Shown piece by piece: positions 39,181 through 64,000 of a stretch of 64,000 bases of DNA. The translations under genes were made by a program, and so were the position numbers. This DNA comes from Eubacteriaceae bacterium (GTDB taxonomy: Bacteria > Bacillota > Clostridia > Eubacteriales > Alkalibacteraceae), in NCBI GenBank assembly GCA_049366695.1, contig JBMNCR010000089.1:14358-78357 (forward strand), in the 5' to 3' direction. Numbering within the stretch: the first letter of the stretch is position 1; each line of letters begins with the position of its first letter. Below the pieces are notes generated by a model. The model had not been told where the DNA came from, searched no databases, and worked only from the letters and a program-made list of their open reading frames with translations.

Positions 39181-40734
39181 TCATAATTTTTCATCAGAAT
39201 ATACATAAGTATTTGAATTTAAAAGTTTTAACGAAATATATAGATGCAGCATTTCATCAGCATTTTTAAAATCGGTTTTACTAATTTCTTTTATACGTTC
39301 TAATCTGTATACAATCGTTGCACGATGAATATATAGGTCTTTAGCTGTTTGAAGCGCATTCATATTGTTTTTTAAGTACATTTGTAGTGTTTGAACGTAT
39401 TCTGTATTGTTTTCCCGATCATAATCATAAAGACGTGATAAAATCGGTGAGTACAAGTATTTGGCGGGAAGTTCTTCAGTGATTTTATTGAGCATATATA
39501 TTAGAACATAATCACAGAATTGGTGTGCTCGCATAGTCGGATTATGTTTGGTTCCAAGTGTAAGTGCGATTCCTGCCTGACAAAAATATTCTTTAAGATT
39601 GCTCAGCCCCTTTGAATAATCACTGTATCCAACTCTAAAATTACCTTCTCTGACGAAATGATTAAAATTTGTAAAATATTCATCTTTAGTTTTTTTAATG
39701 CGACTTAGATTTATAATGACAATTATATTATCATCATTTGTAAAAGCAAAAGTATGTTTGAAGTCATGCATTATTTTATTACAAAAGTAGGTTAAAGTCG
39801 CATTGTAGATATCCTGACTACTGGGTAGAATATGAGCAATACAATAAACGTTCTTTTGACTCCATCCCATTCTTTTTAACTCGTTATTAAATTTAATTTG
39901 GCTATATGCATTTCCAATGATTATATTTTGAAGTAGTGAAATAAATTGAATATTTTCGATTTGATTTAAGGCTATTAGATATTCTGGATCTTCAATCAAG
40001 CATTGTGTTAAATAATCTAAAAGACTCATATCGCTTTCTGTGAACTCATGCACATTCTCAAATACGACAATTCTATATATGAATTCTTCATTAAGAAAAA
40101 TATTCTTGCAAAGGGTTCTAAAGGGAAGAATATTTTCTGGATAAATAAATACATTTCTTTCATCCTTTATTTTTTGATATGCTTTGTCGTTTTTAAATGA
40201 ATTTACTTGATTTATATGAAGCCTTCCAAACTCATCTGTTCCCGTTTCTTCGGTTTTGTTAAATGATGATGTGAGAGACGTACGTGCAACAATATAATAG
40301 TCGGAATTCATAATAGATAAACCGTTTCCAAAGATGTGCTCTGTAATGTCTAATATATGTTGTAATGGTTGATGCTGGCGAATGCTTTGTTGAAGATTTA
40401 AATACCATGATTCATAAGAATCATAAATATTATGGATCATATTACTTAAATTAAAGATATCTTGCGAATCGTCAATAACCAACAAATTCAAATGATCATT
40501 AAAATAGTGTTTTGAAGGGGTAGAAATACATATCAATGCAGAACCTTCCATGAACATAATACTTGATGGTAGCTTTTCAGCAGTGGATATATATAATGTG
40601 TGTGAATTCAAGACAGTCTCATCTGAATAAAATACAGGACGCGGTAAGTTCAATGAACATCCTGATATTCCGATGTTAGAGTTTTTTGCAGCGCTTCCAA
40701 GTCTTTCTTTGATGATTGATAGAGATAAATGCAT
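39181..40734 (-). CDS. PucR family transcriptional regulator (paralog 1)
   Basis: C-terminal PucR-type HTH (NALQTAKDLYIHRATIVYRLERI). 517 aa, transcribed divergently from the corrinoid/methyltransferase genes. Confidence 0.85.
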   Translation of the reverse strand: MHLSLSIIKERLGSAAKNSNIGISGCSLNLPRPVFYSDETVLNSHTLYISTAEKLPSSIMFMEGSALICISTPSKHYFNDHLNLLVIDDSQDIFNLSNMIHNIYDSYESWYLNLQQSIRQHQPLQHILDITEHIFGNGLSIMNSDYYIVARTSLTSSFNKTEETGTDEFGRLHINQVNSFKNDKAYQKIKDERNVFIYPENILPFRTLCKNIFLNEEFIYRIVVFENVHEFTESDMSLLDYLTQCLIEDPEYLIALNQIENIQFISLLQNIIIGNAYSQIKFNNELKRMGWSQKNVYCIAHILPSSQDIYNATLTYFCNKIMHDFKHTFAFTNDDNIIVIINLSRIKKTKDEYFTNFNHFVREGNFRVGYSDYSKGLSNLKEYFCQAGIALTLGTKHNPTMRAHQFCDYVLIYMLNKITEELPAKYLYSPILSRLYDYDRENNTEYVQTLQMYLKNNMNALQTAKDLYIHRATIVYRLERIKEISKTDFKNADEMLHLYISLKLLNSNTYVYSDEKL

Positions 40735-40888
40735 TGTTTAGAACCCCCCCTTATACAAAGTGTATATATTAAAGATGAAAAAGTCAATAATTATGTATAA
40801 TTTACAATTATGTAAATTCATCATAAAATAATAATTGTAAAGCAATTGTGTTTCAAGTAAAAAGAATTAAATATAAGGAGGATAGATT

Positions 40889-41383
40889 ATGGATTTAATG
40901 TCTTTAAAGCAAGCAGTTGGGGATCTTGAAGAAGAAAAAGTGATGCAAGTACTTCAGGAATTTGTAGATTCCAATCCAACAGAAGATGAAGCACAAAAAG
41001 CAGTAGCAGCCTGCCAGGAAGGTATGGCAATGGTAGGAGATTTATATGAAAAGGGAAAATATTTTGTTGGAGATTTAATATTTGCTGGAGAGTTGTTAAC
41101 AGAAGCCATCGATTTAGGAATTGATCAGCCGGTCAATGCTTTTGTGGAAAAAGTGAAAGAAGTAAAACCGAATATTGTAGGGATGAGCGGAGTATTAACA
41201 TTAGCATTAGAAGGCATGAAGGATACGGTTGACGGTTTGAAAGAGGCAGGACTGAGGGATAGCGTTAAGGTTATTATCGGTGGCAATCCAGTAACAAAAG
41301 AAGCATGTGAACATATTGGAGCAGATAACTTTACAACAAATGCTGCAGAAGGTGTAAAAATAACACAAGGGTGGGTGAAGTAA
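40889..41383 (+). CDS. Corrinoid (B12-binding) protein with an in-frame internal deletion of the DxHxxG loop
   Basis: The N-terminal cap helix bundle (GMAMVGDLYEKGKYFVGDLIFAGELLTEAIDL) joins directly to DLGIDQPVNAFVEKVKEVKPNIVGMSG...VIIGGNPVT. The usual GxVxGDxHDIGKN..GFxV block is absent. The protein is 164 aa, against my recollection of about 210 aa for this family. Confidence 0.75.
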   Translation: MDLMSLKQAVGDLEEEKVMQVLQEFVDSNPTEDEAQKAVAACQEGMAMVGDLYEKGKYFVGDLIFAGELLTEAIDLGIDQPVNAFVEKVKEVKPNIVGMSGVLTLALEGMKDTVDGLKEAGLRDSVKVIIGGNPVTKEACEHIGADNFTTNAAEGVKITQGWVK

Positions 41384-42538
41384 ATGAATGATGTAATGAA
41401 AAAATTACAAGAAAAAAGAGAAAGAGTTGCTAAAACAATTCTCAGGGAAGAAGTAGATAAAGTACCTTTTTTATTAATAGCAGGGGAGTATCAAGCGTCT
41501 TATGTCGGTGTTGATGTAAAAGATGTAAATACGTATGAACAAGCTATGGAAATAAATATAAAATTTTATGAAGATATACAATACGATGTTTTAGCATATT
41601 GTTATATTCCCCATAATGTTTTTACGTCAAATTTTATTAGAATACTCGGTGGGGGAGCCCATGTTGTAGTTGATGGGATTAAACAAATCAATCCGGCAGC
41701 TGTTACCATTTTACAACCAGAAGAATATCCCGAATTGATAAAAGATCCCCTTAATTATCTTTTAGAAACCGTTTATCCCAGAAGATTTTCGACATTAAAA
41801 ATTGAAGATCCAGAGGAAAAAATTGAAAAAATAAAAGAGTTTATGGGGTTAATGAGTGGTCTTAATGAATATAGTGATTTGTATGAAAAGAATGGGATTC
41901 CATTGATAATGGGAGCTATATCTTATTATAATCCTATCGATTTAATAATGGATGTTTTGAGAGATTTTACGGGAGTGAGTCGAGATATTAGAAGATGCCC
42001 TGAACTAATAAGAGATGCCGGGCTTGCTATGGTTGAAGCATATAAATTAATGTCTGTAATGTCACCACCTAGGGATTACCAGACAGTTATTGTTCCTATG
42101 CATTTACCTTCTTTTATAAAACCAAAGGATTTTGAAAAGATTTACTGGCCTTCTTATAAAGCGATAACTGAAGCTTTGATTGAACAAGGGCATAATATAA
42201 TGTTTTTCTTTGAAAAAAACTATTCACATTTATATGATTATTTACAAGAACTACCACAAAAGGGGGTATTAGGTGTTTTTGAAGAAGACGATATTAGGGT
42301 TGTAAAGAAAAAACTAGGTAATACCATGGCAGTTGCAGGAGGATTATCATCTAATCTAATGCAATATGGAACGAAAGAAGAATGCATTAATCATGTTAAA
42401 GGGTTAATTGATGATCTAGGTCCAGGTGGTGGATATTTTATTACCAATGATGTACCTTTGATATCCCCTAATGATGCACGACCTGAAAATTTAAAAGCTG
42501 TTGCTGATTGTATTAACGATTATGGATATAACAAGTAG
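41384..42538 (+). CDS. Uroporphyrinogen decarboxylase (URO-D/MtaA) family methyltransferase
   Basis: 384 aa, starting 1 nt after the corrinoid gene stop. The C-terminal GPGGGYFITNDVPLISPNDARPENLKAV is typical of URO-D-family corrinoid methyltransferases. Confidence 0.7.
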   Translation: MNDVMKKLQEKRERVAKTILREEVDKVPFLLIAGEYQASYVGVDVKDVNTYEQAMEINIKFYEDIQYDVLAYCYIPHNVFTSNFIRILGGGAHVVVDGIKQINPAAVTILQPEEYPELIKDPLNYLLETVYPRRFSTLKIEDPEEKIEKIKEFMGLMSGLNEYSDLYEKNGIPLIMGAISYYNPIDLIMDVLRDFTGVSRDIRRCPELIRDAGLAMVEAYKLMSVMSPPRDYQTVIVPMHLPSFIKPKDFEKIYWPSYKAITEALIEQGHNIMFFFEKNYSHLYDYLQELPQKGVLGVFEEDDIRVVKKKLGNTMAVAGGLSSNLMQYGTKEECINHVKGLIDDLGPGGGYFITNDVPLISPNDARPENLKAVADCINDYGYNK

Positions 42539-42551
42539 AGAGGTGAGAAAA

Positions 42552-42965: not shown

Positions 42966-43472
42966 ATGAAAATTGAAACAAAGATTAACTTGTACAGTAC
43001 TCTGTTTTTTGCCATTATTTTTGGCGTAGTCTTCACAGCCGTAGGGGGGCTGATGACAACAGGGGTTATTGATTAGCCTAATTTTCTTGCTACGGTTCTG
43101 GTAGGACTTGTAGTAGGTTTAGTGGTAGGATTGATTATTCCAATCGGAAAATGGGGTGCCGCATTAGCAGGTAAGGCTGCAAAGCCTGGTACTTTCTTAT
43201 TTAATCTAATTATGTACGCATTTATACTGGTGGTAATGTTGATATTTATGAGTCCTGCATTAACGGTGTTTATTGGTAGTGTCCTACACGGTGCACCTGT
43301 GATAGCCGTTTTACCAAGTTCGTACTCTCTATTTATTCCCTTCTTCCTTATCGGTATTGTTCTTATTATGATTGTTGGCGGACCTATTATGAAGCTAGCT
43401 TTAAAATGCGCAGGTGTACCTAAGGCGGTCAAAGCTAATGCGATTGACGAGAATAGTCAAGAAAAAAAATAA
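42966..43472 (+). pseudogene. Small four-TM membrane protein interrupted by one in-frame TAG (43074-43076)
   Basis: The ATG at 42966 (RBS AAAGGTGG) and the track ORF 43122..43472 are in the same frame, separated only by the TAG. Hydrophobic helices continue across the stop. Confidence 0.6.
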
Positions 43473-43904
43473 CCTAGATTCGAGTAAAATTTATTACAAC
43501 TAATAAGAAAATGGGTAATCGCTAAATAGCTGATTTTGTCTTCACAGATTGAAAATGAAGAGAACTCGCAAGATTCCGGACTTTGGAAATGTTCCATAAT
43601 CTTGATGGGTTGTCTTTTATTCTTTCAGTTTTTATTTTTAAGTACAATAAATAAAGGTATATATAGAATTTTGCCAATATATTGTAAACAATAAAACAAA
43701 AATAATATTTTACTACAATGTTTTAATATATTAGTTTATATGAACTAAAAATAATTTCATTATGCTTCTGAATGTATAGAAAGAAAGAAGTAGATATTGT
43801 TTCTGACATCGATATAGACTATGAAATATTTAAGAAAACTTATTCGTTAATAATACCTAAAAAATCAAATTTATCTATACTTTTGTAACGATGACAATAG
43901 AAAG

Positions 43905-43924
43905 TGATAATTATATAATTATCA
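43905..43924. promoter_or_regulatory. 20-bp perfect palindrome TGATAATTATATAATTATCA (copy upstream of the pseudogene)
   Basis: Exact self-complementary sequence, identical to the copy at 48351-48370. Confidence 0.5.
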
Positions 43925-43979
43925 CTGAATTACTTGTTAAACAGTAATCAATCTTATTCAAAAATGTAAGAAAGTAATA

Positions 43980-44634
43980 ATGAAAAAATATTCACATTTA
44001 TTTAGTGCATATCGTATTAAGAATGTGACTTTTAGAAGCCGTATTTTTTGACTCCTACAGGGATGACTTACCCAAATGAATATACGGGAGAACCTGACTT
44101 TAAAACGGTTCTATTCTATGAAAAGAAAGCTCGTGGTGGAGCAGCGAGCGTAACACTTGGGGAAACGGCAATTAATGATGTTGATTGTGTACGTAGACCG
44201 AATGTAGACCGCATTAGACCTGATTTTGCTAGAATGATTTTACCAAAGAAAAGCTGGGTAAAAGTTACAGATGCCATCAAACGTCATGGAGCGGTACCTT
44301 CCATTCAATTATCTCACGCAAGTATGTTTGGTGAGCTAATTTTTATTAATGAGAATCAACCAATTGGTCCTGTTGATTTAGTAAAAAAAATGGAACAGTC
44401 GTTAGAGGTAGGAATGAGGATGATATGAAACGTATCGCCAATGATTTTTCTGAAACTGTTTGGTGTGCAAAAGATGCACGATTTCAAGAGGTAATACTTC
44501 ACTGTGGAAATGGTTGGTTGATTGGACAATTCTTATCACCACATTGCAATACTCGTACAGACAAATAAGGCGGACCTATTGAAAATAGAGCGAAATTTCC
44601 ACTTATGGTAATTGACGCGGTAAGTCAAAAAGTA
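43980..44634 (+). pseudogene. 5' fragment of a paralog of the OYE/Fe-S flavoenzyme gene, disrupted
   Basis: Nucleotide-level similarity to 48412-49068 is visible by eye. A premature TGA at 44049-44051 follows MKKYSHLFSAYRIKNVTFRSRIF, and further frameshifts and stops occur (for example TAA at about 44566). Confidence 0.85.
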
Positions 44635-44642
44635 ACTCATTA

Positions 44643-45011
44643 GGGACATGCATCATCGGAACAGTAGCAGGAGATCTGCATGACATTGGGAAAAACCTAG
44701 TATCCATGATGATTGAAAGTGCTGGATTTGATATGGTAGATCTAGGTGTAGACGTGCCCAAAGAAAAATTTGTGGAAGCCATAAAAGCAAATGACAATGT
44801 AAAGCTAGTAGCCTGTTCTGCACTGCTAACTACCACCATGCCTTCATTAAAAGAAACCGTAGAAGAAATCAAAGCCAGTGGATTAGAGGGATTTAAGGTA
44901 ATCGTAGGTGGAGCACCCATAACAGAAGAGTATGCTAATGAGATTGGTGCCGATGCTTATGTGCCAGATGCAGGTAGTGCCGGAGCAAAGGCCAAAGAAC
45001 TAATTTCGTAG
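44643..45011 (+). pseudogene. 3' two-thirds of a corrinoid-protein gene fused to the flavoenzyme fragment
   Basis: Encodes LGTCIIGTVAGDLHDIGKNLVSMMIESAGFDMVDLGVDVP...VIVGGAPITEEYANEIGADAY with an intact DxHxxG, but has no N-terminal cap domain or start context. Confidence 0.8.
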
Positions 45012-45281: not shown

Positions 45282-46613
45282 TCATTTGAAATTAGGATGA
45301 GGAATTGTTTCCACATCAAAATTCTCGTTTCTGTCTTCTCGGATATATGGAAATAGAAGAACTTTTGCCTTTATCTTCAATTGCCTTGTTCCAGGGTTTC
45401 CCCATAGGACTTCAACTATTTTTCCTTCAACAGCATAATCTTGATCTATGGTACACACGGAAAGCATTTCCCTGGTTTTAGAAGAGAGCATGCGTCCAGA
45501 GGAGGCACCTACCATCTTATCCCCATCATAAACTGCATCTATGTGCATCCCGCCATTATTACGTACATAATCATAGTCACTTACTAAATCCAAAATATCG
45601 CAACTGTTTCCAGCTTCAAATGCTGTAGCAATAACCTTTAACACATCATTTTTGTCCCAGATGAGATGAACCATAGTATTATGGTGTCCTTCCAATTCTG
45701 CTTTGAGGGCTTCTTTTCCAATAAAATCATGGTCAAATTTAATTAATTTCTCCCAGCCTAAATCAATGGGACTTCTGTAAATCAAATCAGATTTTCTATC
45801 AATACTTCCGCTGAGAACTGGCTTTTCATCAAAGGGTGTTGCAAAGTGTTCGGCGACTTGGGGGATGCTTCCTTCTGCATGGCAGTTGACGTAACCAAGT
45901 CGACCAAGCTCTTGAATGCCATATTCTTTACCAACTTCAAGAAGTTTATTATAAATGACTTCTGCATCCTCTATCTTGCCGTGGACTTCATACCCCAAAG
46001 TACCTGCCATTCCAGTTCTTAAGATGAATACATCTTTTCCTGCAATTTGAGCATCTTTGGTATACATGAATTTTATATCATGTAAATCTTTCTGTGTAGC
46101 AGCCTCAACAATTTCCAAAGAGCGGGGTCCACACATCTGATAAAAGACGCGTTTTTCTTTTGTACTTTCGCTAGTAAAATTATATTTATTTCCGACCATT
46201 TTATTCAGTAGTGCGGGATCAGGGAGGCACATAGAGATAAACTCATCCTCCGAGCGTCTTACTATAATTCCGTCCAATACAAGCTTTCCCTTATCGTTGC
46301 AGATTATAGTATGACGGGCTTTCCCCATAGGGAATTTTCTGAAGGTATTGACACTAACCTCCTCCATCATATCAAGATACTCTAAACCTTTTATATCGTA
46401 GAACATGAACGGATTTAAACCGGCATGCAAATAGCTGGTGTCGTGCCAACTGATTTCTTCATTGACCCATGTATTGTATGCAAAGGGAACAAGTGGCCAT
46501 TGCCCATTATTCATCGGTAACCATTTCCCTTCCGGGCAAACATATACTGTGTTTTTAGGGATGGTATTTGGTATATACGGTGACATCACAAGTTTTTTTG
46601 ATTCATTTTCCAT
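45282..46613 (-). CDS. GcvT-family, tetrahydrofolate-dependent aminomethyl/methyl-transferase, long LigM/DesA-like form (paralog 1)
   Basis: About 443 aa from the ATG at 46613 (RBS AAAGGAG). Motifs RTGMAGTLGYEVHG and IKFDHDFIGKEALKA. The layout resembles the long O-demethylase-type members rather than the roughly 360-aa GcvT. Confidence 0.7.
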   Translation of the reverse strand: MENESKKLVMSPYIPNTIPKNTVYVCPEGKWLPMNNGQWPLVPFAYNTWVNEEISWHDTSYLHAGLNPFMFYDIKGLEYLDMMEEVSVNTFRKFPMGKARHTIICNDKGKLVLDGIIVRRSEDEFISMCLPDPALLNKMVGNKYNFTSESTKEKRVFYQMCGPRSLEIVEAATQKDLHDIKFMYTKDAQIAGKDVFILRTGMAGTLGYEVHGKIEDAEVIYNKLLEVGKEYGIQELGRLGYVNCHAEGSIPQVAEHFATPFDEKPVLSGSIDRKSDLIYRSPIDLGWEKLIKFDHDFIGKEALKAELEGHHNTMVHLIWDKNDVLKVIATAFEAGNSCDILDLVSDYDYVRNNGGMHIDAVYDGDKMVGASSGRMLSSKTREMLSVCTIDQDYAVEGKIVEVLWGNPGTRQLKIKAKVLLFPYIREDRNENFDVETIPHPNFK

Positions 46614-46788
46614 TAGTACAACTCCTTTTAATTTATTAAACAAAACCGGTTTTGTTATTATATATAAGTATAATTCATACCTTCGCTGAAATATATGAAA
46701 TTTAGAACGAAAAAACACCATTGAATTGTGAAAAAATCCAAATCTGTGGTGTTTTTTATATTAAGGAAAAAAACAATCAAATACTATT

Positions 46789-47994
46789 TCAACATTTCTT
46801 ATCAATAAACCGTAATAACTTGAATGAAAACTGCAAATTAAAACAGACTTGTTCATCTGTCAAAAAGATGGAACATAACTCCTCAATTTTATGAATACGA
46901 TAATACAAGGTGTTTTTATGCATATACATATGATCAGCTGTTCTCTGGATATTACGCCCAAATTCAAGATATTTTTCTAGGGTATCTGCCAAACAAGCCT
47001 CATTTTCTTTATCATATTTTTTTAAAATATCGATTACTGGATCATAAAAATCTCGAGGGTTGCATTCTTTTCCGGCGATTTCAAAAAAATGATAGAGAAC
47101 AATATTATCATAGAAGCATAGTGATGAATCGTTATTAAGCTTCTTATTAATCCTTATAGCACTTTTCGCCTGTCTATAGGCATCATCTAGGTATGTAATA
47201 TCATTGAAAACACGACTAACACCAATTTGAATGGAGATTCCCAAAAAGAATTTGTTAATTACCGATATAACAAACTCATGATTTATGCTATTATCGAATA
47301 ATAACAAAATCCCATCGTCATAAATTATACTATAACTAGAATGCAGAGATATATCTAATGATTCTATTATATAATATATAGATAGTCCGGGGCTTCGTGA
47401 TGTATATTCAATTAATATCAGTCGCATTTGATCATAAAAATTGGCCTTAAGACTTGCGATTCGCTCACGCATTTCCGTTTTCGTTACATTATTTTCTATT
47501 AAATCTTTAAATAGACTATAATAAGGGGTCTTTTGCATAGCAGCGGTTCTATCTATATAAAGCATTTCGTATAGCACAGCTTTACATAGAATAACTAATA
47601 GTTCTAGAGTATCATCATGTGTTGGATTATTTTCCACTAATGTCACAATACCTATAACACTGTTTTTATCTCGAATTCGACAACCCAAAAAACGTTTCGG
47701 GAAGAAATCAAACTTCCCGATAACCGGTTTGTCACTGTTAAATATTTGTGTGTAAACACCAGCATTTTCAACCTCTACTAAATCATTGAAAGTCATATGT
47801 CCATCAGGAAATAGTTGATTCCATGTTTCCTGATCTTCAGTCCTAGAATAACTTTTTGCCAAAATCTTTCGGCTTAAATCATAAACAAATATTGGATTAT
47901 TCAAAACCTCGGAAGCAATATTAATAATATGCTGTAAACCGCCTCGTTCAACAAGTGCATTAAGAATTATTGATTTTTTTTCTGAGAACTCCAT
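46789..47994 (-). CDS. PucR/CdaR family transcriptional regulator (paralog 2, short form)
   Basis: C-terminal HTH NIQRTADHMYMHKNTLYYRIHKI; 401 aa. Confidence 0.85.
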   Translation of the reverse strand: MEFSEKKSIILNALVERGGLQHIINIASEVLNNPIFVYDLSRKILAKSYSRTEDQETWNQLFPDGHMTFNDLVEVENAGVYTQIFNSDKPVIGKFDFFPKRFLGCRIRDKNSVIGIVTLVENNPTHDDTLELLVILCKAVLYEMLYIDRTAAMQKTPYYSLFKDLIENNVTKTEMRERIASLKANFYDQMRLILIEYTSRSPGLSIYYIIESLDISLHSSYSIIYDDGILLLFDNSINHEFVISVINKFFLGISIQIGVSRVFNDITYLDDAYRQAKSAIRINKKLNNDSSLCFYDNIVLYHFFEIAGKECNPRDFYDPVIDILKKYDKENEACLADTLEKYLEFGRNIQRTADHMYMHKNTLYYRIHKIEELCSIFLTDEQVCFNLQFSFKLLRFIDKKC

Positions 47995-48333
47995 TTTGCA
48001 TTCTACCTCACTGAATTAATTATAACTTTTGCATTAAAGTATCTAATTACAAAAGTATTGTTGTTTAAAGTTAATCCTATTATATACATTTAATACTGTA
48101 TTCCACAAATAATTCTGATATAATCGTGTCAATGTATTTAGGATAAAATAAAATACTTGTTCTAGATTATCAATTAGGTACCACTGAAAGGTGGTTTGTG
48201 TAACGACTTAATCTTTCCACTGAAGTTTTTTTATCTAAAAGTATTTTCTATGTTTTTGATATTTGTGTAGATTATTGTATATGTGTAGTTCGTCTATAAT
48301 GACTAAAAAGGAAGACTTGTATAGACTCTTTTG

Positions 48334-50370: not shown

Positions 50371-50396
50371 TATACTAATCTTACAAATCATAGTAC

Positions 50397-50431
50397 AAAA
50401 AAGCGATTTACTTTTCGAGATCGCTTTTTTG
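50397..50431. terminator. Bidirectional hairpin terminator
   Basis: AAAAAAGCGAT ... ATCGCTTTTTT. Confidence 0.8.
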
Positions 50432-50464
50432 TTATTTTGTATTAGAATGTGTTTTCTTGCAAAT

Positions 50465-53467: not shown

Positions 53468-53600
53468 GGTGTTGAGAGCTCTATTCGAGGGATCTAATAC
53501 CTGTGAGATTGCAATTACCATTAATTATAATAGAAATAAGGTAGCTAAAGCAGATTGTATCTATATGGTAGAATTACATAAAGCAACAAAGACTATGTAT

Positions 53601-53630
53601 AAGGGAGTCTAAACTCCCTTGTTTTTTTTT
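53601..53630 (+). terminator. Rho-independent terminator
   Basis: AAGGGAGT ctaa ACTCCCTT followed by GTTTTTTTTT. Confidence 0.85.
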
Positions 53631-54862: not shown

Positions 54863-56482
54863 ATGAAACTTAATGCAGATATCATATATGACAATCTCAG
54901 CCAATCCGTTATGATGGAGAGCTATGGTCACAAAAAAAAGGAACTCACACTTAAAAGACCTGAGTTCTATAATGGTTTAAGCCGCGAATTCAAATCCAAT
55001 CATATTTATATATCACTTGTTGACCGGCTCCATTTAGATCCAGTTTTTGGAGATGATGTTGTGGTTATCAGTGTTGGAGGCAATCCACCCATAACATATT
55101 TGGTTGATAAATGTGTTTGCTTCTCAATATTAGATAATACCGATTTATTGACTATTTTTAATTTAGTGCAGCAGATATTTGATAAATATGATGATTGGGA
55201 TACCGGGTTACAGAATATTATAGACACTACTGGAAGCATTAAGGAAATTGTTGAGCTTAGTTTTACTATATTTGGAAACCCGATTATTGTACTAGATCCT
55301 AACTTTAGATATCTAGCATATAGCAGCATTATTGATACTCAAGATGAACTAGCAAATTATCGTCCTGATAAAAATGGCACCATGCTTCTGAATTCGTTTA
55401 GTAAATTTGACAATAGCTATGGGACGAAAATATTTGCGAGGGAGCCATTATTACTGTCTTCACAGGAAGTAAAATATTTCATTATCAACCTCTTTGAAAA
55501 GAATGACTACGCCGGTAGTTTGACAATTCCATTTATTATCCAAAATCAACGACAGAGTGATATTGCACTGGCCCAATATTTGGCAAAAGTTATTGAAAAT
55601 TCACTGAAAAAAAATTCCACGATATTAAGCTCTAATGCGAATATTCTAAAGAGAATCCTTCAGGATCTACTAAATTGCTTTCCCATAGATTCAACCAAGA
55701 TGCACTATTTAAAGGATGATAGATTTACTGGGAAGTATATCTGCATTAAAATGTTTCTTGGATATCGTTCAAATAAGGTACCAGTTGAGTACATATGTAA
55801 TCATATAGAAAGTTACTTTTCTGGTTGTGTAGCTTTTGAATATGAATCAGTAATTGTAACATTTATTAATCTTGAAAAGATTTTTTGCGACGAAAAGATA
55901 CTAATAGACAAGATGAAAAAATTACTGCAGACAATGAATTTAAAAGCCGGTGCTAGTCATTCTTTTACTGATCTGTCAATGGCTCGACTTTATTACCGGC
56001 AAGCATGTATTGCTTTTGAAATGGGATCCTCAATCAACCTTGATCATATCTTTTACAAATTTGACGATTACGTTTTGATGTATATGATGTCACATTGTAT
56101 GGGTGAATTTCCTATAGATATTTTATTAACAAATGGCGTTTGTAAGCTTATAGAACATGATTTGACGTCGGACACTAATTATTTAAATACGCTGCGTACC
56201 TACTTGAATAACAATATGAATATAACCAAAACTGCAAAGGATCTCTATGTACATCGTAGTACCTTTTTGGAACGATTAAAACGCATCAAAAGATTATTAC
56301 AAATTGATTTAGAAGATCCCGACCAGAGGCTTCGTCTTCTAGTCGCACTTAAAATCATTGAGACTAATGAAAAAGTCAAAACTAAAATAAACAATATTGA
56401 ATTGATTGATCAAAATGGTTTTAATTCGGAAGATTCAAAAAAGTTACTAGAATTAGAAAGCATTTATAAAGAAAATCCTTAG
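54863..56482 (+). CDS. PucR family transcriptional regulator (paralog 4)
   Basis: N-terminus parallels paralog 1 (MKLNADIIYDNL versus MHLSLSIIKERL). C-terminal HTH ITKTAKDLYVHRSTFLERLKRI. Confidence 0.85.
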   Translation: MKLNADIIYDNLSQSVMMESYGHKKKELTLKRPEFYNGLSREFKSNHIYISLVDRLHLDPVFGDDVVVISVGGNPPITYLVDKCVCFSILDNTDLLTIFNLVQQIFDKYDDWDTGLQNIIDTTGSIKEIVELSFTIFGNPIIVLDPNFRYLAYSSIIDTQDELANYRPDKNGTMLLNSFSKFDNSYGTKIFAREPLLLSSQEVKYFIINLFEKNDYAGSLTIPFIIQNQRQSDIALAQYLAKVIENSLKKNSTILSSNANILKRILQDLLNCFPIDSTKMHYLKDDRFTGKYICIKMFLGYRSNKVPVEYICNHIESYFSGCVAFEYESVIVTFINLEKIFCDEKILIDKMKKLLQTMNLKAGASHSFTDLSMARLYYRQACIAFEMGSSINLDHIFYKFDDYVLMYMMSHCMGEFPIDILLTNGVCKLIEHDLTSDTNYLNTLRTYLNNNMNITKTAKDLYVHRSTFLERLKRIKRLLQIDLEDPDQRLRLLVALKIIETNEKVKTKINNIELIDQNGFNSEDSKKLLELESIYKENP

Positions 56483-56526: not shown

Positions 56527-56573
56527 AACAGCCTCCTTTTTACAGATGATTTACCTGTAAAAAGGAGGCTGTT
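56527..56573 (+). terminator. Long perfect hairpin (19-bp stem) after PucR paralog 4
   Basis: AACAGCCTCCTTTTTACAG atgatttac CTGTAAAAAGGAGGCTGTT with a weak T tract downstream. Confidence 0.6.
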
Positions 56574-57105: not shown

Positions 57106-57921
57106 ATGATTTGTAATCGATTTGAAAATAAGGTCGTATTAGTCGTTGGCGCGGGTGCCGGTATGGGCGAAGCAACTGCATTGCAATTTCTCAAAGAGGG
57201 TGCAAAAGTTATAGCTCTTGACATGTACAAGGATCGACTGGATCGACTTGAGGGGCAGGCTAATGGATTGAATGGTAGTCTTGAGATGTACCTTGGCGAC
57301 ATCACAGATGTCAAAACGGTGGAAGGCGTAGTCGACGTCATCACAAGGAAATATGGCACACTGGATTGTCTTGCTCATGTGGCAGGAGTTATGGATTTTA
57401 TGCTTACACCTGACATTTTGACTGATGAGATGTGGGATCGTGTCATGGATATCAACGTCAAGAGTGTATGGCGCATGGTCAAAACGGCTATGCCCCTTCT
57501 GAAAAACCATGAGGGTGATGCTGGGAGTGTTGCTATTGTTTCTTCACTCGGTGGATATGTGGGATCCTCATCTGGTACTGCATATATTGTTTCTAAGCAC
57601 GCTGTGGAGGGACTCATGAAGAATCTCGCTTTCTCTTATAGAGAGAATAATGTCCGTATAAACTGCGTAGCACCAGGTGCAATTGCTTCCGAAATTGTTG
57701 GTACTTCCGCACGTATGTTCCCCGAGTTAGAATATGATGCAGGATTATGCCCTGAAGGTATGGAAATCTATTTAGAAAATGGTATTGGACTAGTAAGACC
57801 AGATGATGCCTATGGAGAATCACAGGATATCGCTGATGCCATAACTTTCCTGTGCTCCCAGCAGGCCAAATTCATCAATGGGTCAAGTCTCATTGTTGAC
57901 GGTGGTTGGTACAGTGCATAA
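57106..57921 (+). CDS. Short-chain dehydrogenase/reductase (SDR)
   Basis: VVGAGAGMGEA cofactor motif, YIVSKHA catalytic YxxxK and NCVAPGAI. Clearly higher GC than the backbone. Confidence 0.9.
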   Translation: MICNRFENKVVLVVGAGAGMGEATALQFLKEGAKVIALDMYKDRLDRLEGQANGLNGSLEMYLGDITDVKTVEGVVDVITRKYGTLDCLAHVAGVMDFMLTPDILTDEMWDRVMDINVKSVWRMVKTAMPLLKNHEGDAGSVAIVSSLGGYVGSSSGTAYIVSKHAVEGLMKNLAFSYRENNVRINCVAPGAIASEIVGTSARMFPELEYDAGLCPEGMEIYLENGIGLVRPDDAYGESQDIADAITFLCSQQAKFINGSSLIVDGGWYSA

Positions 57922-57989: not shown

Positions 57990-59228
57990 ATGAATAAAAA
58001 AATAGATAAACGACTTCCAAGAGAAACCGGCAAAGACGTGATGCCCGAGCATGCGGCGATTAAAACTCCATGGGAAAAGCTGGTTTCATATCATGATGCG
58101 GCACACTACGCAAATCGTTACAATGCAGTAATCAGCGCCGCCATGTTGCAAGCATTACGAATTCTCGTACCCGACTATGTAGAAAGAGTTAAGGCTATGT
58201 GCAAAAATGCCTATGACAGAGTAAAAACACCATTTCTTACCCCTTACGGCGAAATGATGAAAGACGATCTCAATACCCATCCGTTTTTCAGGGGTAACTT
58301 CGTCGGTGCCCAAGTCGGCGACTTCGGCGACGAGTGCCTGCTTATGTGCGGTCGTGTCAATGACTTCGGCACTTACCGTGTGGAAAAGGAACTGGATACC
58401 TGTCCCTGGGATATCTTAGGATCTGAGATGGGTCGCGCCACCACCCAGTCGCTTTTAGGTAGCGCCGATGGACTAGCAACCTGGCTGCCATCTGGACCCA
58501 AACTTGATTATCATATGGTTGAAGCAAAGTGCTGTGGTGATCTTCACTGCCGAGTCGTGGCTGAAAGTCGCGATAAATTCCCAATGCCGCCCCATGAGCA
58601 GTGGGAATGTTATGGACCTATTGCCACAGACGATCAGATCAAATTCACGCCCGAAGAGGATTGTATGAAGGAACCCATGGTATTTCAAGAGGATTGCAAC
58701 TATAAATATGTTAACGGCACGTGTATGGAGAGTGATTCCAAGAGCCTATATCCAATGACTTATCAGTCGAATGGGACGTGCTATATCACACCGACAATCA
58801 ATGACTTAATCAATGATGGCACGGTTGACGAAAAATTTGCTGATCATGTGATTAAATGCGTATGCGAAGCTGCGGGCAAGGCTGCCTTTGGCGAGTTCTA
58901 TTCGAAGGAAGGCCTACGTAGCTGGCTCGGTGTTCCCCGGGACATCGACGACGGACGCGTCATGGGCGCCCATATTGAGATGTATCTGCAAAGCATGATA
59001 GCCGACTACACAGTCGAAGCATTCAATGCTGACGAGGTTATTTATGTAATTGACCGCACCAATCTGTCCTTCGCAGGCCCGAGATATATAGACGCATTGA
59101 TATCCACATGGTACGGCATGACTAAAACCCTTGTCAATGCTCAGTGGGCGCTGTGGGAAGAAGCTGGAGAAACCTCTGAGGATCAACTCCGTATCAAGAT
59201 TGCCAAGAAAGTTGACAAGTTATGTTGA
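57990..59228 (+). CDS. Cysteine-rich protein of unknown function (412 aa)
   Basis: Good RBS (AAAGGAGAAGG). Sits between the SDR and GcvT genes with 68-nt and 36-nt gaps. Cys motifs: TCPWD, KCCGDLHCRVV, WECYG, CNYKYVNGTC and KCVCEAAG. It bears only a loose resemblance to ATC-hydrolase-like proteins (xCPxxx...GDxxCxxxx). Confidence 0.7.
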   Translation: MNKKIDKRLPRETGKDVMPEHAAIKTPWEKLVSYHDAAHYANRYNAVISAAMLQALRILVPDYVERVKAMCKNAYDRVKTPFLTPYGEMMKDDLNTHPFFRGNFVGAQVGDFGDECLLMCGRVNDFGTYRVEKELDTCPWDILGSEMGRATTQSLLGSADGLATWLPSGPKLDYHMVEAKCCGDLHCRVVAESRDKFPMPPHEQWECYGPIATDDQIKFTPEEDCMKEPMVFQEDCNYKYVNGTCMESDSKSLYPMTYQSNGTCYITPTINDLINDGTVDEKFADHVIKCVCEAAGKAAFGEFYSKEGLRSWLGVPRDIDDGRVMGAHIEMYLQSMIADYTVEAFNADEVIYVIDRTNLSFAGPRYIDALISTWYGMTKTLVNAQWALWEEAGETSEDQLRIKIAKKVDKLC

Positions 59229-59264: not shown

Positions 59265-60281
59265 ATGTATAAAAATGTATACAAATACGATGAAATGAAG
59301 CGTACCGAGCATATGGCTGTCCGAGAAACGGTGGGTTGGTACTTATGGACACATCAGCTTTTGGAGGTCAAAGGAGAAGATGCCACAGCTTTTCTGGATA
59401 GGATGTTTGCAAACCCCATCGCCAACCTAAAAATCGGCGGCGCAAGATATACAACCATGCTAAATGAGAAAGCGGAAATCATTGACGATGTAGTGGTATT
59501 CCGAATGGAAGAGCAGAGATTCTGGATTTCAACCCTATTCCTGACCAATCTAACTGATTGGATTTCCAATCATAAAAACGGTTATAAGGTAAAATCCTCC
59601 GATATTACTGAACAGTACCATATGTTCGCTGTGCAGGGGCCTAGAGCAAAAGATCTTATCAACGCAATGGTGGAGAACAACGTGGACGATCAGCGTTTCT
59701 TTACAATTAGGGACAATAAAATTGATGGTATATGTGTCAAAATTAACCGAGGCGGTTTCACCGGCGAGAAATTCGGCTATGAGATATATGTTGCACTGGA
59801 AGATCTGCCCGCCATGGAGACCAAGCTGAAAGTCTGCGGCGAATCTTTCGGCGCCATCGAAGTAACGGATATACAAATCATGGCCTGGACACTGCCCACG
59901 GAAGCCGGCTTCTATTACATGCGTGACCTGATGTACACCAACCCGTTTGAGGTGGGTCTAGATCGCGGTATTAGCTGGGATAAGGATTTTATCGGAAAAG
60001 AGGCACTGCTGAAGATCAAAGATGAAGGTCCATCCCGCGAGATGGTCGGATTTACTATAGACGAGGACGACGTACATATCAACGCCAAGGATTTGGGCGG
60101 TCCCGGTACAGCTGTCATGCTGAACGGCGAAGAGATCGGTCGTGTGTCTAAATTTAATTATAGCTTTGTACTGGAGAAGAATATTGGCTATATCCTTGCC
60201 AAGAAGGGTGCAGTGAAGCCGGGCGATCATGTTGCCATCAAGTCTTATGATGCCGTCATTACGGACAAGGTTTTCATCTAA
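59265..60281 (+). CDS. GcvT-family aminomethyltransferase-like protein, short form (paralog 3)
   Basis: 338 aa with HMAVRETVGWYLW.., AVQGPRA, NRGGFTGEKFGYEIY and WDKDFIGKEALL, the classical GcvT fold motifs. Confidence 0.8.
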   Translation: MYKNVYKYDEMKRTEHMAVRETVGWYLWTHQLLEVKGEDATAFLDRMFANPIANLKIGGARYTTMLNEKAEIIDDVVVFRMEEQRFWISTLFLTNLTDWISNHKNGYKVKSSDITEQYHMFAVQGPRAKDLINAMVENNVDDQRFFTIRDNKIDGICVKINRGGFTGEKFGYEIYVALEDLPAMETKLKVCGESFGAIEVTDIQIMAWTLPTEAGFYYMRDLMYTNPFEVGLDRGISWDKDFIGKEALLKIKDEGPSREMVGFTIDEDDVHINAKDLGGPGTAVMLNGEEIGRVSKFNYSFVLEKNIGYILAKKGAVKPGDHVAIKSYDAVITDKVFI

Positions 60282-60642: not shown

Positions 60643-61923
60643 ATGATGAATGAAAAAATACTAGCATCAAATAAGATGAGGAGTAACACAATATTTTTCA
60701 TGTTAGGTTTGGGTATGCTGCTTGCAATGATTCCTTATTTAGGACCTGCAGTAGTTCTCCCAACATTAATGGTTGATCTTTCTATACCAAGTACTGCACT
60801 TGGATACGTCATTTCAATTTATTTGATAGTTAGTGGAATATGTATGTTTATAGGTAGCTATATACAAGAGAAGATTGGTTATCTCAATACTTATCATTTA
60901 GGAAATATCTCAATAACACTCGGTATCCTTGTTTCCGCAATTGCCCCTAACTTCCTTGTTTTTATGATAGGACGTGGGCTTTCTGGCTTTGGTTTTGGTC
61001 TTCTTTCAGCCGCCGGTGGTCCGATTCGAGCCATTTGGTTCAAAGATAAAAAATATGCACTGGCAAACAGCTTCAATCAAATTATGTCATGTGTTGGCAT
61101 TAGTCTTGCATTCGTCCTTATGACTAGCCTGTTGGCCATAACTGGATCATGGCGTAATGTTATGATGATCTATGCCAGCGGTTCTATAGTATATACAGTA
61201 GCATGTTTTTTCGTTATGAAGTATCCCGTAGGTGTCAAAGAAGCTCTCGAGCAGAAGAGAGAGGGAATTAAGTCTGGACAGATTGCAAAGCAAGAAAACA
61301 ATCTCATGCGTCCTTTCAAGTTCAAGGACTACTGGCTCATTTTAATTCACAACATTGTATATATTGCAGCCAATACCGCACTCCTCACCTATATGGTCGT
61401 ATACTTCAATCAAGAAGCAGGTATTTCTGTATCTGCTGCAGCATTGATCACAAGTCTGTTAACTATCTGTCAGATCATTGGCGCGTTGGTGGGAGGCTTT
61501 CTTGTCGCCCAGACTGGACGTAGGAAGATTTGGGTTATTATTTTTAGTGTTACCTACTCCTTGGCATCAATTACCATGATTTTAGCAGGCGGGAATTATT
61601 TTATAGTTATTAGCATGGCTGTAATTATCGGTATTTGTGCCTTTGCAAGAATTCCGGGCATCAGTATGTATTATGTTGAGTTGACTGATACATATGACCC
61701 ATCTCTGGTTGGACCTGCGGTTGCTATGGTAAACGGCATTCCAATGCTCGCTAATATTATTATCAGCGGACTTATTGGTGCTATGGTATTCAGTCCATTG
61801 GGATACGGTAAAACTCTTATTATCGTCTATGCAATGTGTTTAGCTAGTACTATCCCGCTATTTTGGCTAAAGAACATCGGACCTCGCGCTAAAAATGAAA
61901 TTCGTAACACTGAAAACGTTTAA
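60643..61923 (+). CDS. MFS transporter
   Basis: 426 aa with about 12 hydrophobic helices and a GRGLSGFGFG loop motif. Confidence 0.85.
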   Translation: MMNEKILASNKMRSNTIFFMLGLGMLLAMIPYLGPAVVLPTLMVDLSIPSTALGYVISIYLIVSGICMFIGSYIQEKIGYLNTYHLGNISITLGILVSAIAPNFLVFMIGRGLSGFGFGLLSAAGGPIRAIWFKDKKYALANSFNQIMSCVGISLAFVLMTSLLAITGSWRNVMMIYASGSIVYTVACFFVMKYPVGVKEALEQKREGIKSGQIAKQENNLMRPFKFKDYWLILIHNIVYIAANTALLTYMVVYFNQEAGISVSAAALITSLLTICQIIGALVGGFLVAQTGRRKIWVIIFSVTYSLASITMILAGGNYFIVISMAVIIGICAFARIPGISMYYVELTDTYDPSLVGPAVAMVNGIPMLANIIISGLIGAMVFSPLGYGKTLIIVYAMCLASTIPLFWLKNIGPRAKNEIRNTENV

Positions 61924-62424: not shown

Positions 62425-62599
62425 TTCATATATGAATGAGACGCTCTAATAGTATACATAATTCTCTTTTCCATGGCATTGGACTGCCGTGGAAGAGAGT
62501 TAACTTTATTAGCAATCGTTGATAAGTATAATTCACTCCTTTACAGATGTATATGAAATTCAGTATGAAAAGACCGTTTATTTGTAAAAAAGTCCAAAC

Positions 62600-62800
62600 T
62601 TATGGCATTTGTTTAATAAAAGGATAGGTCCAACACATAAGACTAAAATTATGATATTTTTTGTTGTTAGGTGAATTCAAATACAGTAGTTACTTCCTTG
62701 CGAATATGCCCATAGCCTTTTTTAGTATTTCGATTTCCTCTGCAAGTTTTGCGTTTTTCTTTAACAAATATTTTTATTCTGCTGATGTTATAATTGTGTC
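62600..62800 (-). mobile_element. IS3-family remnant (end of orfA including the A-AAA-AAG slippery site, start of orfB)
   Basis: The minus strand translates to YLLKKNAKLAEEIEILKKAMGIFARK*, the conserved leucine-zipper tail of IS3 OrfA. The heptamer AAAAAAG lies within CTAAAAAAGGCT. Upstream and downstream are broken by stops. Confidence 0.55.
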
Positions 62801-62870
62801 TTTATCCTTCGCTTATCTATATTTTAAAGTGTTCGGCTTTTCGTGTCTACAATAGTATACTAACACCAGG

Positions 62871-63039
62871 CCTAAAATAACTTTTTGCCAGAATCTTTTG
62901 GCTTAAATCATAAACTATATTGGATTATCCAAAACTTGGGAAGCAATATTAATAATATGCTGTAAACCGCCTCGTTCAACGAGTGCATTAAGAATGATTG
63001 ATTTTTTTTCTGAGAACTCCATATTGAAATTTACCTCGC
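62871..63039 (-). repeat. Duplicate of the 5' end (start codon plus about 48 codons and about 15 nt of leader) of PucR paralog 2
   Basis: Aligns by eye with 47842-48011 with few mismatches and a 1-nt deletion. The start codon complement is at 63020-63022. It abuts the IS3 remnant. Confidence 0.8.
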
Positions 63040-63058
63040 TTTTTTAATGGTGCTAAAA

Positions 63059-64000
63059 TTACAGATAGTTGCATATCAAACATGAAAACCACAGCTGCAT
63101 TCGGTACTTTTCACTTAATTGACGGACATCCATCTCTATAATAGCAGTGATTTTTTCCAGTCTGTAAGTAAGGGTATTGCGGTGCATAAAAAGTTCTTTT
63201 CCCGTTTGAGCGGTATTACAGCCGTTATATAGATAGATTCTCAGGCAATGGACGAAGTCTGTATCGTATGTGTTGTCATGATTGCGAAGGCGTAAAATAT
63301 TCGCATGACACATGCTTTTTAGACTTGTAGAATTACTCATTAGGCTGATTATATGTGGGAAATAATAATCAGCAAAATCCCATAGGATATTTTCTGATTT
63401 GGCTGTTTCTCCCTCATAAAATGCTGCTTTGCTTTGGATATAATAATATTTTAAATCACTGAAACGGTTGAAAAAATTGCTGCATCCACAATGTAGTCCA
63501 AGCTTAGATAAAAGCTCTACTAATTTTTTTTCGTACTTATCATTATAGTTCCCTTTTAATTGTCTTCTTATGACGATAATGGAATTTTCATATAAAAATA
63601 TAATAACATCTTCCTGCATCCTTTTTATGCGGTATAGGCAAAAATCTGCTTGACTATCACTAAGTTCCTTTCCACTAGGGTAAGCCATGGTATAAACACG
63701 AAAATTGTCATGACTACTCCAACCACGTTCATTCAGGTGGTAGCTGATAATTTTCTCATCTACGGGGAATCCTTTAAGGAGTTTTTCTAAATAGTAGGTT
63801 ACGACTTCATTTGAACCTTTAAATTCTATGCTGGAGGATATTGCTAGCTCCATCACATCTTTTATCAGCTGCAGAAGGGATATTTGACCTTGGGTAAAGG
63901 GAGTATTTATGCTGGTCGTTGCAATAAAAGCAAAAAGCTTACCATCAAGGTACAAATTTACCATTAAGTCAGAATACTTCGTGTAGGGAGAGCCATAGGG
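63059..64000 (-). CDS. PucR family transcriptional regulator (paralog 5); 5' end lies outside the window
   Basis: C-terminal HTH NTAQTGKELFMHRNTLTYRLEKI. The frame remains open beyond the ATG at 63964 to the window edge. Confidence 0.8.
   Translation of the reverse strand, partial: PYGSPYTKYSDLMVNLYLDGKLFAFIATTSINTPFTQGQISLLQLIKDVMELAISSSIEFKGSNEVVTYYLEKLLKGFPVDEKIISYHLNERGWSSHDNFRVYTMAYPSGKELSDSQADFCLYRIKRMQEDVIIFLYENSIIVIRRQLKGNYNDKYEKKLVELLSKLGLHCGCSNFFNRFSDLKYYYIQSKAAFYEGETAKSENILWDFADYYFPHIISLMSNSTSLKSMCHANILRLRNHDNTYDTDFVHCLRIYLYNGCNTAQTGKELFMHRNTLTYRLEKITAIIEMDVRQLSEKYRMQLWFSCLICNYL

Follow-up and report, generated by a model that had tools for sequence, protein, structure and literature searches.

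In the standard view, anaerobes demethylate the methoxylated aromatics of lignin and diet with corrinoid-dependent methyltransferases of several components. In acetogens, these O-demethylases consist of methyltransferase I (MT I), a corrinoid protein, methyltransferase II (MT II) and an activase, as in Acetobacterium dehalogenans (Odm), Desulfitobacterium hafniense and Moorella (Mtv), and they convert methyl ethers to methyl-tetrahydrofolate (methyl-THF). LigM and DesA of Sphingobium sp. SYK-6, the O-demethylases of vanillate/3-O-methylgallate and of syringate, respectively, are of another type: single-subunit, cofactor-free enzymes that move the one-carbon (C1) unit off an ether oxygen onto THF and have SesA, BrdA and DmdA as relatives. 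Characterised members of the LigM/DesA/SesA/BrdA group all come from aerobes (PMC5547118), and DesA-like genes have been noted in actinobacterial and proteobacterial metagenome-assembled genomes (MAGs) of thermophilic habitats, not in anaerobes (PMC9296663). Here we describe LigM/DesA-like and other C1-transfer genes that lie beside PucR-family regulators in a 64,000-nucleotide stretch of DNA, called the window below, from contig JBMNCR010000089.1 of a Eubacteriaceae bacterium. The open-access literature searched contained no paper linking PucR to O-demethylases, or LigM-type enzymes to anaerobes or acetogens, an absence that is no proof.

Positions 39-64 kb of the window are best explained as an accessory mosaic island in a Eubacteriaceae genome of about 28% GC. 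On balance, we favour the view that this island has gathered four or more independent cassettes for substrate-specific C1 removal, every one with a PucR/CdaR-family regulator of its own: R1 with a corrinoid protein and a URO-D-fold methyltransferase (module 1), R2 with a LigM-like gene and a flavoenzyme (module 2), R3 with a second LigM-like gene (module 3), and R4 with an operon containing a short GcvT gene (module 4). In this explanation, the enzyme families, synteny, co-inheritance and decay rest on homology and comparison; substrates, induction and DNA binding are our inferences. A wider proposal, put forward only tentatively, is that strict anaerobes (Acetobacterium and other acetogens, Lachnospiraceae and Coriobacteriia of the gut, Treponema of termite guts, and Dehalobacter) could have two corrinoid-independent THF routes for plant-aromatic C1 units. 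One would use single-subunit LigM-type enzymes, at times in an operon with an old yellow enzyme (OYE)/Fe-S ene-reductase, and the other a tandem V4R-like substrate-binding protein together with a short GcvT; each would be under a dedicated co-evolving PucR sensor. The parts are of known kinds; their combination and host range are new.

By homology, the two long GcvT-like proteins of the island belong to separate subfamilies, both uncharacterised, of the LigM/DesA/SesA/BrdA THF-dependent aryl-ether C1 transferases. LigM-like 1 (443 aa; 45282-46613, minus strand; start corrected to 46613, in agreement with the NCBI call) matches the NCBIfam models for DesA and LigM at 9.8e-53 and 6.7e-46 and the LigM structure 5x1i in the PDB at 1.8e-32. 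LigM-like 2 (440 aa; 52145-53467, plus strand) is monocistronic, has a terminator-like hairpin at 53599-53622, and matches LigM and DesA models at 3.7e-43 and 3.2e-42 and the PDB LigM at 1.9e-32. The alignments are full-length, covering positions 25-424 of 453 in the DesA model, 29-419 of 461 in the LigM model and residues 34-438 of 5x1i. The SYK-6 enzymes and the island proteins share the fold, the length class of about 440-470 aa, the end-to-end alignment and the catalytic Tyr, which is present as 'WRTY' (Y228) in the 440-aa and as 'RLGY' in the 443-aa protein, aligned to 'SRAY' of LigM, and which in LigM-like 2 is invariant in 16 homologs. This residue is Tyr247 of LigM, or residue 250 in the tagged chain 5x1i; its catalytic role is taken from PMC9296663 and general knowledge. 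Identity to LigM is about 25-30% (PDB alignment) and to unnamed Sphingobium homologs about 40-44%. The two island proteins are just 30% identical to each other, and LigM-like 1 has 63-65% identity to Acetobacterium proteins. Further differences from LigM/DesA are the strict anaerobe and acetogen hosts, as opposed to aerobic lignin degraders, the PucR regulators, the lack of adjacent metF/ligH, and the coupling of one subfamily to an OYE/Fe-S reductase.

Other members of the superfamily are matched through the shared folate-binding domain alone (DmdA, GcvT, SoxA and Tdm at 1e-9 to 1e-20, with DmdA at 1e-11 to 1e-14). With full-length DesA/LigM matches set against a DmdA match of about 1e-12, the substrates are much more likely to be methoxylated (or methylenedioxy) aromatics than betaines, N-methyl amino acids or dimethylsulfoniopropionate (DMSP), and methoxylated aromatics are the substrates we infer. 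A role in glycine cleavage was rejected for the GcvT-like proteins on their GcvT scores, which lie below cut-off (37-70 bits for the long proteins), and on the context, since neither gcvH nor gcvP is found in the window.

The LigM-like enzymes could instead be demethylenases of the SesA/BrdA type, acting on the methylenedioxy rings of sesamin-type lignans, berberine-type alkaloids or piperonylate and forming 5,10-methylene-THF, not 5-methyl-THF. LigM-like 2 is 44-50% identical to proteins of Arthrobacter, Paenarthrobacter, Rhodococcus and Streptomyces, which we take to be genera where such demethylenases were found, and lignans abound in gut and termite habitats. SesA and BrdA are themselves members of this GcvT-like family, and automatic annotation labels BrdA proteins vanillate/3-O-methylgallate O-demethylase (PMC5547118). 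This alternative is nevertheless unlikely: the methyl-transfer Tyr of LigM is conserved, and the best matches among the curated models compared are DesA and LigM.

The association of LigM-like genes with PucR regulators extends to other genomes. Comparison loci from other genomes are labelled by L and a number (97 fetched loci in total). A census of 80 GTDB loci with a LigM-like gene contained 29 of anaerobe type (Firmicutes, Coriobacteriia and others) and 51 of aerobic actinobacterial or proteobacterial type. A PucR open reading frame (ORF) lies at most 300 bp upstream of the LigM-like gene at 12 of the 29 anaerobe-type loci and within 2.5 kb at two more; none of the 51 aerobe loci has an adjacent PucR. 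The linkage occurs in Tissierellia, Dehalobacter, Acetobacterium, Lachnospiraceae and Coriobacteriia, and so the recurrence in related genomes that the original prediction had asked about is found. For example, a Tissierellia MAG has an ortholog of LigM-like 2 (80% identity) divergent from an R3-like PucR, and Dehalobacter sp. DCM has two PucR/LigM-like pairs back to back. In L094, a relative of LigM-like 1 (85%) stands behind an R2-like PucR, and the same contig holds an R1-like PucR with a complete Pterin_bind-corrinoid-URO-D-CobW operon. Acetobacterium wieringae (L092) has an OYE (65%), a 402-aa PucR and a relative of LigM-like 1 (63%) together, followed by a second PucR/LigM-like pair. An Acetobacterium contig carries LigM-like, PucR, PucR, LigM-like and OYE genes in a row, the last two 11 bp apart, with acetyl-CoA synthase 6 kb away, and a further contig has an OYE, a PucR and two LigM-like genes next to type IV secretion system (T4SS) genes. 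In A. wieringae, a 90-aa ORF (L092, 7474-7746) is an internally deleted LigM-like remnant with the N-terminal ~65 residues fused to a C-terminal 'NENFDTETIPHP' tail, which indicates that cassettes decay in other genomes too.

Known PucR-type regulators include PucR of Bacillus subtilis (purine catabolism), CdaR of Escherichia coli (sugar diacids), AdeR and PmfR. They have in common with R1-R5 the C-terminal HTH_30 domain and a place beside catabolic genes; a central GGDEF-like domain and an N-terminal sensor region that varies between members are typical of the family. Unlike those of PucR, CdaR and AdeR, the neighbours here are C1-transfer cassettes and not purine, diacid or alanine genes, and five lineages occur within 25 kb. 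Five ORFs with a PucR-type helix-turn-helix (HTH) had been predicted at 39-64 kb, and all score above the gathering cut-off of 27 for Pfam HTH_30 (PF13556), at 30.1-79.4 bits. A custom hidden Markov model built from the five HTH regions and run against all six-frame ORFs of the window returned exactly these five, all beyond 39 kb and none in 1-39 kb. The five HTH strings quoted earlier occur verbatim in the translations, and profile searches agree with the assignment of the regulators to PucR and of the GcvT-like proteins to the folate-binding fold. The central GGDEF_2 domain (PF17853) reaches 17-23.5 bits in R1, R2 and R3, under its cut-off of 24.5, and is absent from R4 and R5, and the Pfam search gave no match to the N-terminal PucR domain in any of the five. 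Against the NCBIfam models for CdaR, AdeR, PmfR and Rv1453, the best scores of R1-R5 are 20-75 bits where the cut-offs are 600-800, which is far from orthology.

R1 (517 aa; 39181-40734, minus strand; HTH_30 65.7 bits) is divergent from the corrinoid/URO-D operon and has 52% identity over 505 aa to the L094 PucR that is divergent from the Pterin_bind-corrinoid-URO-D-CobW operon; identity to all other compared PucRs is 20-27%. R2 is a short form (401 aa; 46789-47994, minus strand; HTH_30 67.2 and GGDEF_2 23.5 bits) lying upstream of and co-directional with LigM-like 1 and divergent from the OYE gene. Its identity is 72.5% to the PucR that precedes the LigM-like 1 ortholog in L094 and 42% to the 402-aa A. 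wieringae PucR between OYE and LigM-like genes. R3 (510 aa; 50465-51997, minus strand; HTH_30 30.1 bits), divergent from LigM-like 2, has 50% identity over 502 aa to a 509-aa Tissierellia PucR, which begins MKFNLH and supports the predicted start at 51997, the longer ORF to 52099 being unneeded. R4 (539 aa; 54863-56482, plus strand; HTH_30 79.4 bits) is upstream of the GC-rich operon. R5, of which the window holds the C-terminal 313 residues (63059-64000, minus strand; HTH_30 54.3 bits), runs past the window end as had been stated, its frame being open to position 64000.

The five regulators are 20-29% identical in pairs, which makes them old distinct lineages and rules out recent local duplication as their source. 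The closest relatives of R1, R2 and R3 (50-72%) flank the same cassette type elsewhere, which fits one regulator per module. In the census, the short co-directional PucRs resemble R2 and the long divergent ones resemble R5 most; among the paralogs of the window, R5 comes nearest (25-34%) to most of the long PucRs that other anaerobes carry divergent from LigM-like genes. On this ground, the partner of R5 beyond the window is predicted to be another LigM-like gene. The sixth PucR 5' fragment of the original prediction is real. It lies in the remnant of a second LigM-like 1/R2 cassette (62522-63048, minus strand; repeat families D3, D5 and D6), in which 62867-63048 is a 90% DNA copy of 47838-48020, i.e., of the R2 5' end and upstream region. 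This copy encodes R2 residues 1-51 in two frames (94% and 87% identity by tblastn), the reading frame being broken, and 62522-62574 resembles 46664-46716.

The OYE/4Fe-4S/flavin adenine dinucleotide (FAD) enzyme of module 2 (652 aa; 48412-50370, plus strand, with the start corrected to 48412; Oxidored_FMN 190.7 and Pyr_redox_2 114.8 bits) is encoded by a monocistronic gene with a terminator-like hairpin at 50395-50432. It has the same three domains and Cys motif (CVRCCNC...C, read from the sequence) as 2-enoate reductase, BaiCD/BaiH, BilR, 2,4-dienoyl-CoA reductase (DCR) and 2-naphthoyl-CoA reductase, and it shares 65% identity with its counterpart in the A. wieringae cassette. BaiCD and BilR models match at 1e-116 and 1e-107, with 389 against 825 and 359 against 750 bits, i.e., below orthology. 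PDB matches are 2-naphthoyl-CoA reductase (4e-73), DCR (7e-62) and trimethylamine dehydrogenase (TMADH; 6e-46), which places the enzyme by similarity nearer to C=C reductases than to TMADH. Coupling of an OYE to a LigM-like gene and a PucR had no description in the literature searched.

The flavoenzyme also bears on whether the modules demethylate non-aromatic donors, such as glycine betaine, sarcosine/dimethylglycine, N-methyl amino acids, DMSP or trimethylamine N-oxide. In that case, the OYE would be an amine dehydrogenase like TMADH, StcD or DgcA that frees formaldehyde for capture on THF by the GcvT fold. TMADH and histamine dehydrogenase do share the OYE/Fe-S/ADP architecture, with the match at 6e-46, and GcvT-fold domains do act in this manner in dimethylglycine oxidase, SoxA and Tdm, for which there are weak matches (1e-14 to 1e-37). 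The short GcvT of module 4 matches SoxA, DmdA and Tdm as well as it does GcvT, and by general knowledge PucR/CdaR regulators classically control nitrogenous or acidic small molecules. These points are opposed by the end-to-end alignment of the long proteins with DesA/LigM (1e-42 to 1e-53, against 1e-11 to 1e-14 for DmdA) with the methyl-transfer Tyr kept, by the better matches of the flavoenzyme to C=C reductases (4e-73, 7e-62, 1e-107 to 1e-116), and by the lack of an OYE partner at most LigM-like genes, and we hold non-aromatic donors to be decidedly unlikely.

Of the sigma-70-like promoter matches in this region, the best (ATGACA-17-TATAAT; 48337-48370, plus strand; 11/12 in a promoter scan) lies ahead of the OYE gene. 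A perfect 20-bp palindrome, TGATAATTATATAATTATCA, at 48351-48370 lies over its -10 element and is a candidate operator of the OYE gene. Exactly two copies occur in the window, against 0.06 expected, the second being at 43905-43924 in an OYE pseudogene (43843-44634, plus strand; repeats D1, D2 and D4), which is a copy of about 90% of the promoter region and 5' third (48289-49068) with broken frames. The palindrome is kept exactly in this copy, which is otherwise 79-90% identical. None of the 97 fetched loci has it, and no similar sequence occurs in the A. wieringae intergenic regions, so that it is not claimable as a conserved PucR operator.

Module 4 consists of a short-chain dehydrogenase/reductase (SDR; 57106-57921, plus strand; adh_short_C2 163.8 bits; 72% identity to the L088 cassette SDR), an unannotated 412-aa protein (57990-59228, plus strand) and, 36 bp downstream of the latter, a short GcvT-family THF-binding protein of 338 aa (59265-60281, plus strand; GCV_T 143.5 and GCV_T_C 34.3 bits). 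A major facilitator superfamily (MFS) transporter follows (60643-61923, plus strand; MFS_1 111.6 bits; 69% identity to the L088 cassette MFS). With the GcvT equivalog and subfamily models, the 338-aa protein stays below the cut-offs, at 158.5 against 300 and 127 against 236 bits. The 412-aa protein has no Pfam (including V4R), NCBIfam or PDB sequence match; its 588 homologs (55-87% identity) are all annotated as hypothetical. An AlphaFold model from 33 sequences (predicted local distance difference test score, pLDDT, 82; predicted template modelling score, pTM, 0.85) tentatively points to a tandem V4R/Bet3/H-NOX-like fold. The Foldseek matches of the model are weak and all have the Bet3/H-NOX/V4R fold, the phenol-binding sensor domains of MopR and DmpR among them; each half of the predicted fold is similar to this small-molecule-binding type. 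Residues C138, W140, D141, E178, H186 and C187 are invariant, and the conserved Cys, Glu and His, which recall the zinc site of MopR, suggest a metal site. In contrast to MopR/DmpR, the protein is a stand-alone tandem without AAA+ or DNA-binding output, without sequence match to them, and with an obligate GcvT partner. On an Acetobacterium contig, L099 1-1314 encodes a sigma-54 activator whose sensor domain is a true Pfam V4R match, about 9 kb from the LigM-like/PucR/OYE cluster and adjoining acetyl-CoA synthase; it adds a further regulator of aromatic-sensor type to this neighbourhood.

In every context examined, including L088, L089, L090 and L096, the gene for the 412-aa protein is followed within about 40 bp by that for the 338-aa GcvT-family protein. 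The pair spans Eubacteriaceae, Lachnospiraceae, Treponema and Anaerolineales at 55-87% identity, with SDRs and MFS alongside; its regulators are PucR in a Eubacteriaceae-like contig, in Qiania dongpingensis and in L096, and AraC in Treponema. The Treponema locus L090 has two such pairs in tandem. We regard the pair as a candidate two-protein THF-dependent demethylase, which may be a new enzyme type. In L096, a relative of R4 (39% identity) lies between a V4R-like/GcvT/3xSDR operon, from which it is divergent, and Fhs-FchA-FolD-FocA, a neighbourhood that supports delivery of C1 units to the THF pool and their oxidation to formate, in line with the predicted feeding of the folate pool.

The module 4 operon was acquired from a GC-richer donor. 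The SDR/412-aa/338-aa block (57.0-60.4 kb) has 44-52% GC with sharp borders, and R4 just upstream has 31-33%. R4 is just 27% identical to the PucRs of L088 and L089, the companions of the closest operon copies, which indicates that R4 and the operon were joined secondarily in this genome. A very strong, terminator-like hairpin (56527-56573; 20-bp stem, 8 G-C pairs) stands 45 bp past the R4 stop codon. Between it and the SDR operon there is a 530-bp non-coding stretch, within which GC steps at about 56.95 kb.

Module 1, in contrast to modules 2-4, which have no corrinoid protein, is of the corrinoid type, and its intact relative accompanies the R1-like PucR in L094. The corrinoid protein (164 aa; 40889-41383, plus strand) has B12-binding_2 and B12-binding domains, and alignment with four intact homologs of 208-220 aa reveals an in-frame deletion of about 47 residues that takes out the GDxHDIGKN loop. 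Lacking the DxHxxG loop of functional corrinoid systems, it is probably non-functional. The adjoining URO-D-fold protein of the MtaA/MtbA-like superfamily (41384-42538, plus strand; Pfam URO-D 60.9 bits; weak NCBIfam matches to MtaA/methylcobalamin:coenzyme M methyltransferase) is a candidate substrate:corrinoid methyltransferase. A second corrinoid gene is present as a 3' fragment (44619-45011, plus strand; residues ~84-209; B12-binding 62.7 bits; 76% identical to corrinoid A of L094 in its C-terminal part). No Pterin_bind methyltransferase or CobW/activase was found in the window by tblastn with the L094 proteins; MT II and activase are thus missing as well, and module 1 looks defunct.

A gene for a small polytopic membrane protein follows (42966-43472, plus strand), with 53-60% identity over the full length (tblastn) to homologs in L001 (11396-11848; 150 aa), L092 (9367-9849; 160 aa) and L094 (17081-17599; 172 aa). 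It has an in-frame TAG at 43074-43076 where all homologs have Trp (TGG). Read-through of this codon as pyrrolysine or selenocysteine was rejected as the simplest reading, since homologs carry Trp there. Members of this unannotated family of 150-172 aa are encoded directly 3' of LigM-like genes and also inside a corrinoid methyltransferase operon, and the family may be a component of substrate uptake.

In the first 39 kb of the window, GC is 28.3% and the genes serve common housekeeping functions (type III glutamine synthetase, FeoB, UvrC, HPr kinase, PGI, MreB and NAD(P)HX repair enzyme). This part also encodes, at 10579-12860 (plus strand), a radical SAM protein followed by a LigB-like/AMMECR1 fusion, an AmmeMemoRadiSam-type pair unrelated to the island. 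Beyond 39.2 kb, GC climbs to 30-48% and stays in this range up to the end of the window. This rise over the core, together with a remnant of an IS256/mutator-type transposase (53970-54338, plus strand; 58.5% identical by tblastn to the L092 Transposase_mut protein at residues 260-382) and partial duplicates of 90% identity, gives the region its island character. Gene by gene, R1-R4 have 30-32% and R5 36% GC, consistently below the neighbouring enzyme genes (32-48%); the enzyme genes of the island have 37-48%, with the URO-D-like gene as the sole exception. The island borders have no tRNA according to ARAGORN, and Rfam at gathering threshold detected no THF, cobalamin or other riboswitch. Debris and lesions number at least seven in 25 kb: the corrinoid loop deletion, the membrane-protein TAG, the OYE 5' copy, two corrinoid fragments, the transposase remnant and the R2 5' copy. 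Close relatives of the LigM-like 1/OYE cassette and of the V4R-like/GcvT cassette adjoin genes of T4SS coupling protein, Toprim and archaeo-eukaryotic primase (AEP) types (L098, 1-2752; L088, 1230-2669 and 13471-14559). These neighbours suggest carriage of the cassettes on conjugative elements.

Such a record could mean that the clustering is without regulatory meaning, i.e., that the island is a decaying dump of mobile cargo with PucRs that are orphans or act on distant targets. The lesions, the heterogeneous GC with R4 and its operon of different origin, and the T4SS and primase genes beside related cassettes all speak for it. Orphans would not be expected, however, to stay adjacent to the enzyme genes in different families and phyla and to match in regulator lineage as well, and the R2, R3 and R4 modules are intact ORFs with plausible promoters and terminators; we consider this possibility very unlikely. 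The "array" is best seen as mobile cargo accreted at one hot spot, in which modules 2, 3 and 4 are intact. The modular design of the original prediction is thereby replaced by accretion of independent, partly decayed cassettes, as repeats and fragments indicate. Its description of the neighbours held for the presence of corrinoid/URO-D, two GCV_T, OYE and SDR/GcvT/MFS genes, and was amended by the deleted corrinoid loop and by the moved starts of LigM-like 1 and OYE. Its assignment of one C1 module to each regulator suits R2 and R3; it is weakened by the defunct look of module 1, by the position of the R5 partner outside the window and by R4, which is not co-inherited with its operon.

Under the favoured explanation of separately regulated C1-removal cassettes, each PucR would sense its own aromatic ether through the divergent N-terminal region and then activate (or de-repress) the adjacent mono- or oligocistronic unit. 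The LigM-like proteins would act as single-subunit, O2- and corrinoid-independent enzymes that place the methyl group (or the methylene of methylenedioxy rings) straight onto THF, and the ene-reductase would probably saturate the phenylpropenoid side chain of, e.g., ferulate or sinapate. In module 4, the V4R-like protein may bind a (probably phenolic) substrate that would be imported by the MFS and modified by the SDR, with the GcvT partner holding THF and taking the C1 unit. Module 1 is of the classical anaerobic methyltransferase type (R1, corrinoid and URO-D), decayed here. The C1 units may enter the Wood-Ljungdahl pathway and acetogenesis as methyl-THF, or be oxidised to formate.

Several observations weigh against this explanation. 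Both LigM-like proteins are below the equivalog cut-offs (DesA 179 bits against 800, LigM 148-157 against 580; about 145-179 overall), which makes them family members, not orthologs, from which the substrate is not transferable; the substrate and even the reaction type (methyl or methylene transfer) are extrapolated. Many LigM-like genes of anaerobes stand with LysR, as in Blautia liquoris, or without an adjacent regulator. Module 1, with neither a functional corrinoid protein nor a Pterin_bind methyltransferase nor an activase, is left with one URO-D-like gene alone. R4 is not an ortholog of the PucRs of the closest operon copies (27%) and differs in GC from the operon, and the Foldseek matches of the 412-aa protein are weak (E 1.7e-3 to 3e-2, target template modelling score 0.4-0.5). 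The source genome is a MAG, in which assembly errors could be behind some of the lesions.

If the LigM-like proteins, and likewise the V4R-like/GcvT pair, are active as proposed, anaerobes would own simpler, B12-independent demethylases that pass methyl or methylene groups straight to THF, with hundreds of homologs in acetogens, gut and termite-gut bacteria. The matched PucRs would be ready-made substrate-specific sensors and a handle for substrate discovery, and the orthologous cassette in the cultivable A. wieringae makes the question directly testable. The proposal, if true, would guide the choice of enzymes for oxygen-free lignin valorisation, and would bear on gut conversion of dietary phenolics, lignans and drugs as well as on carbon flow from lignin and polyphenols into acetogenesis. 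The textbook view of corrinoid-dependent anaerobic O-demethylation would then have to be revised.

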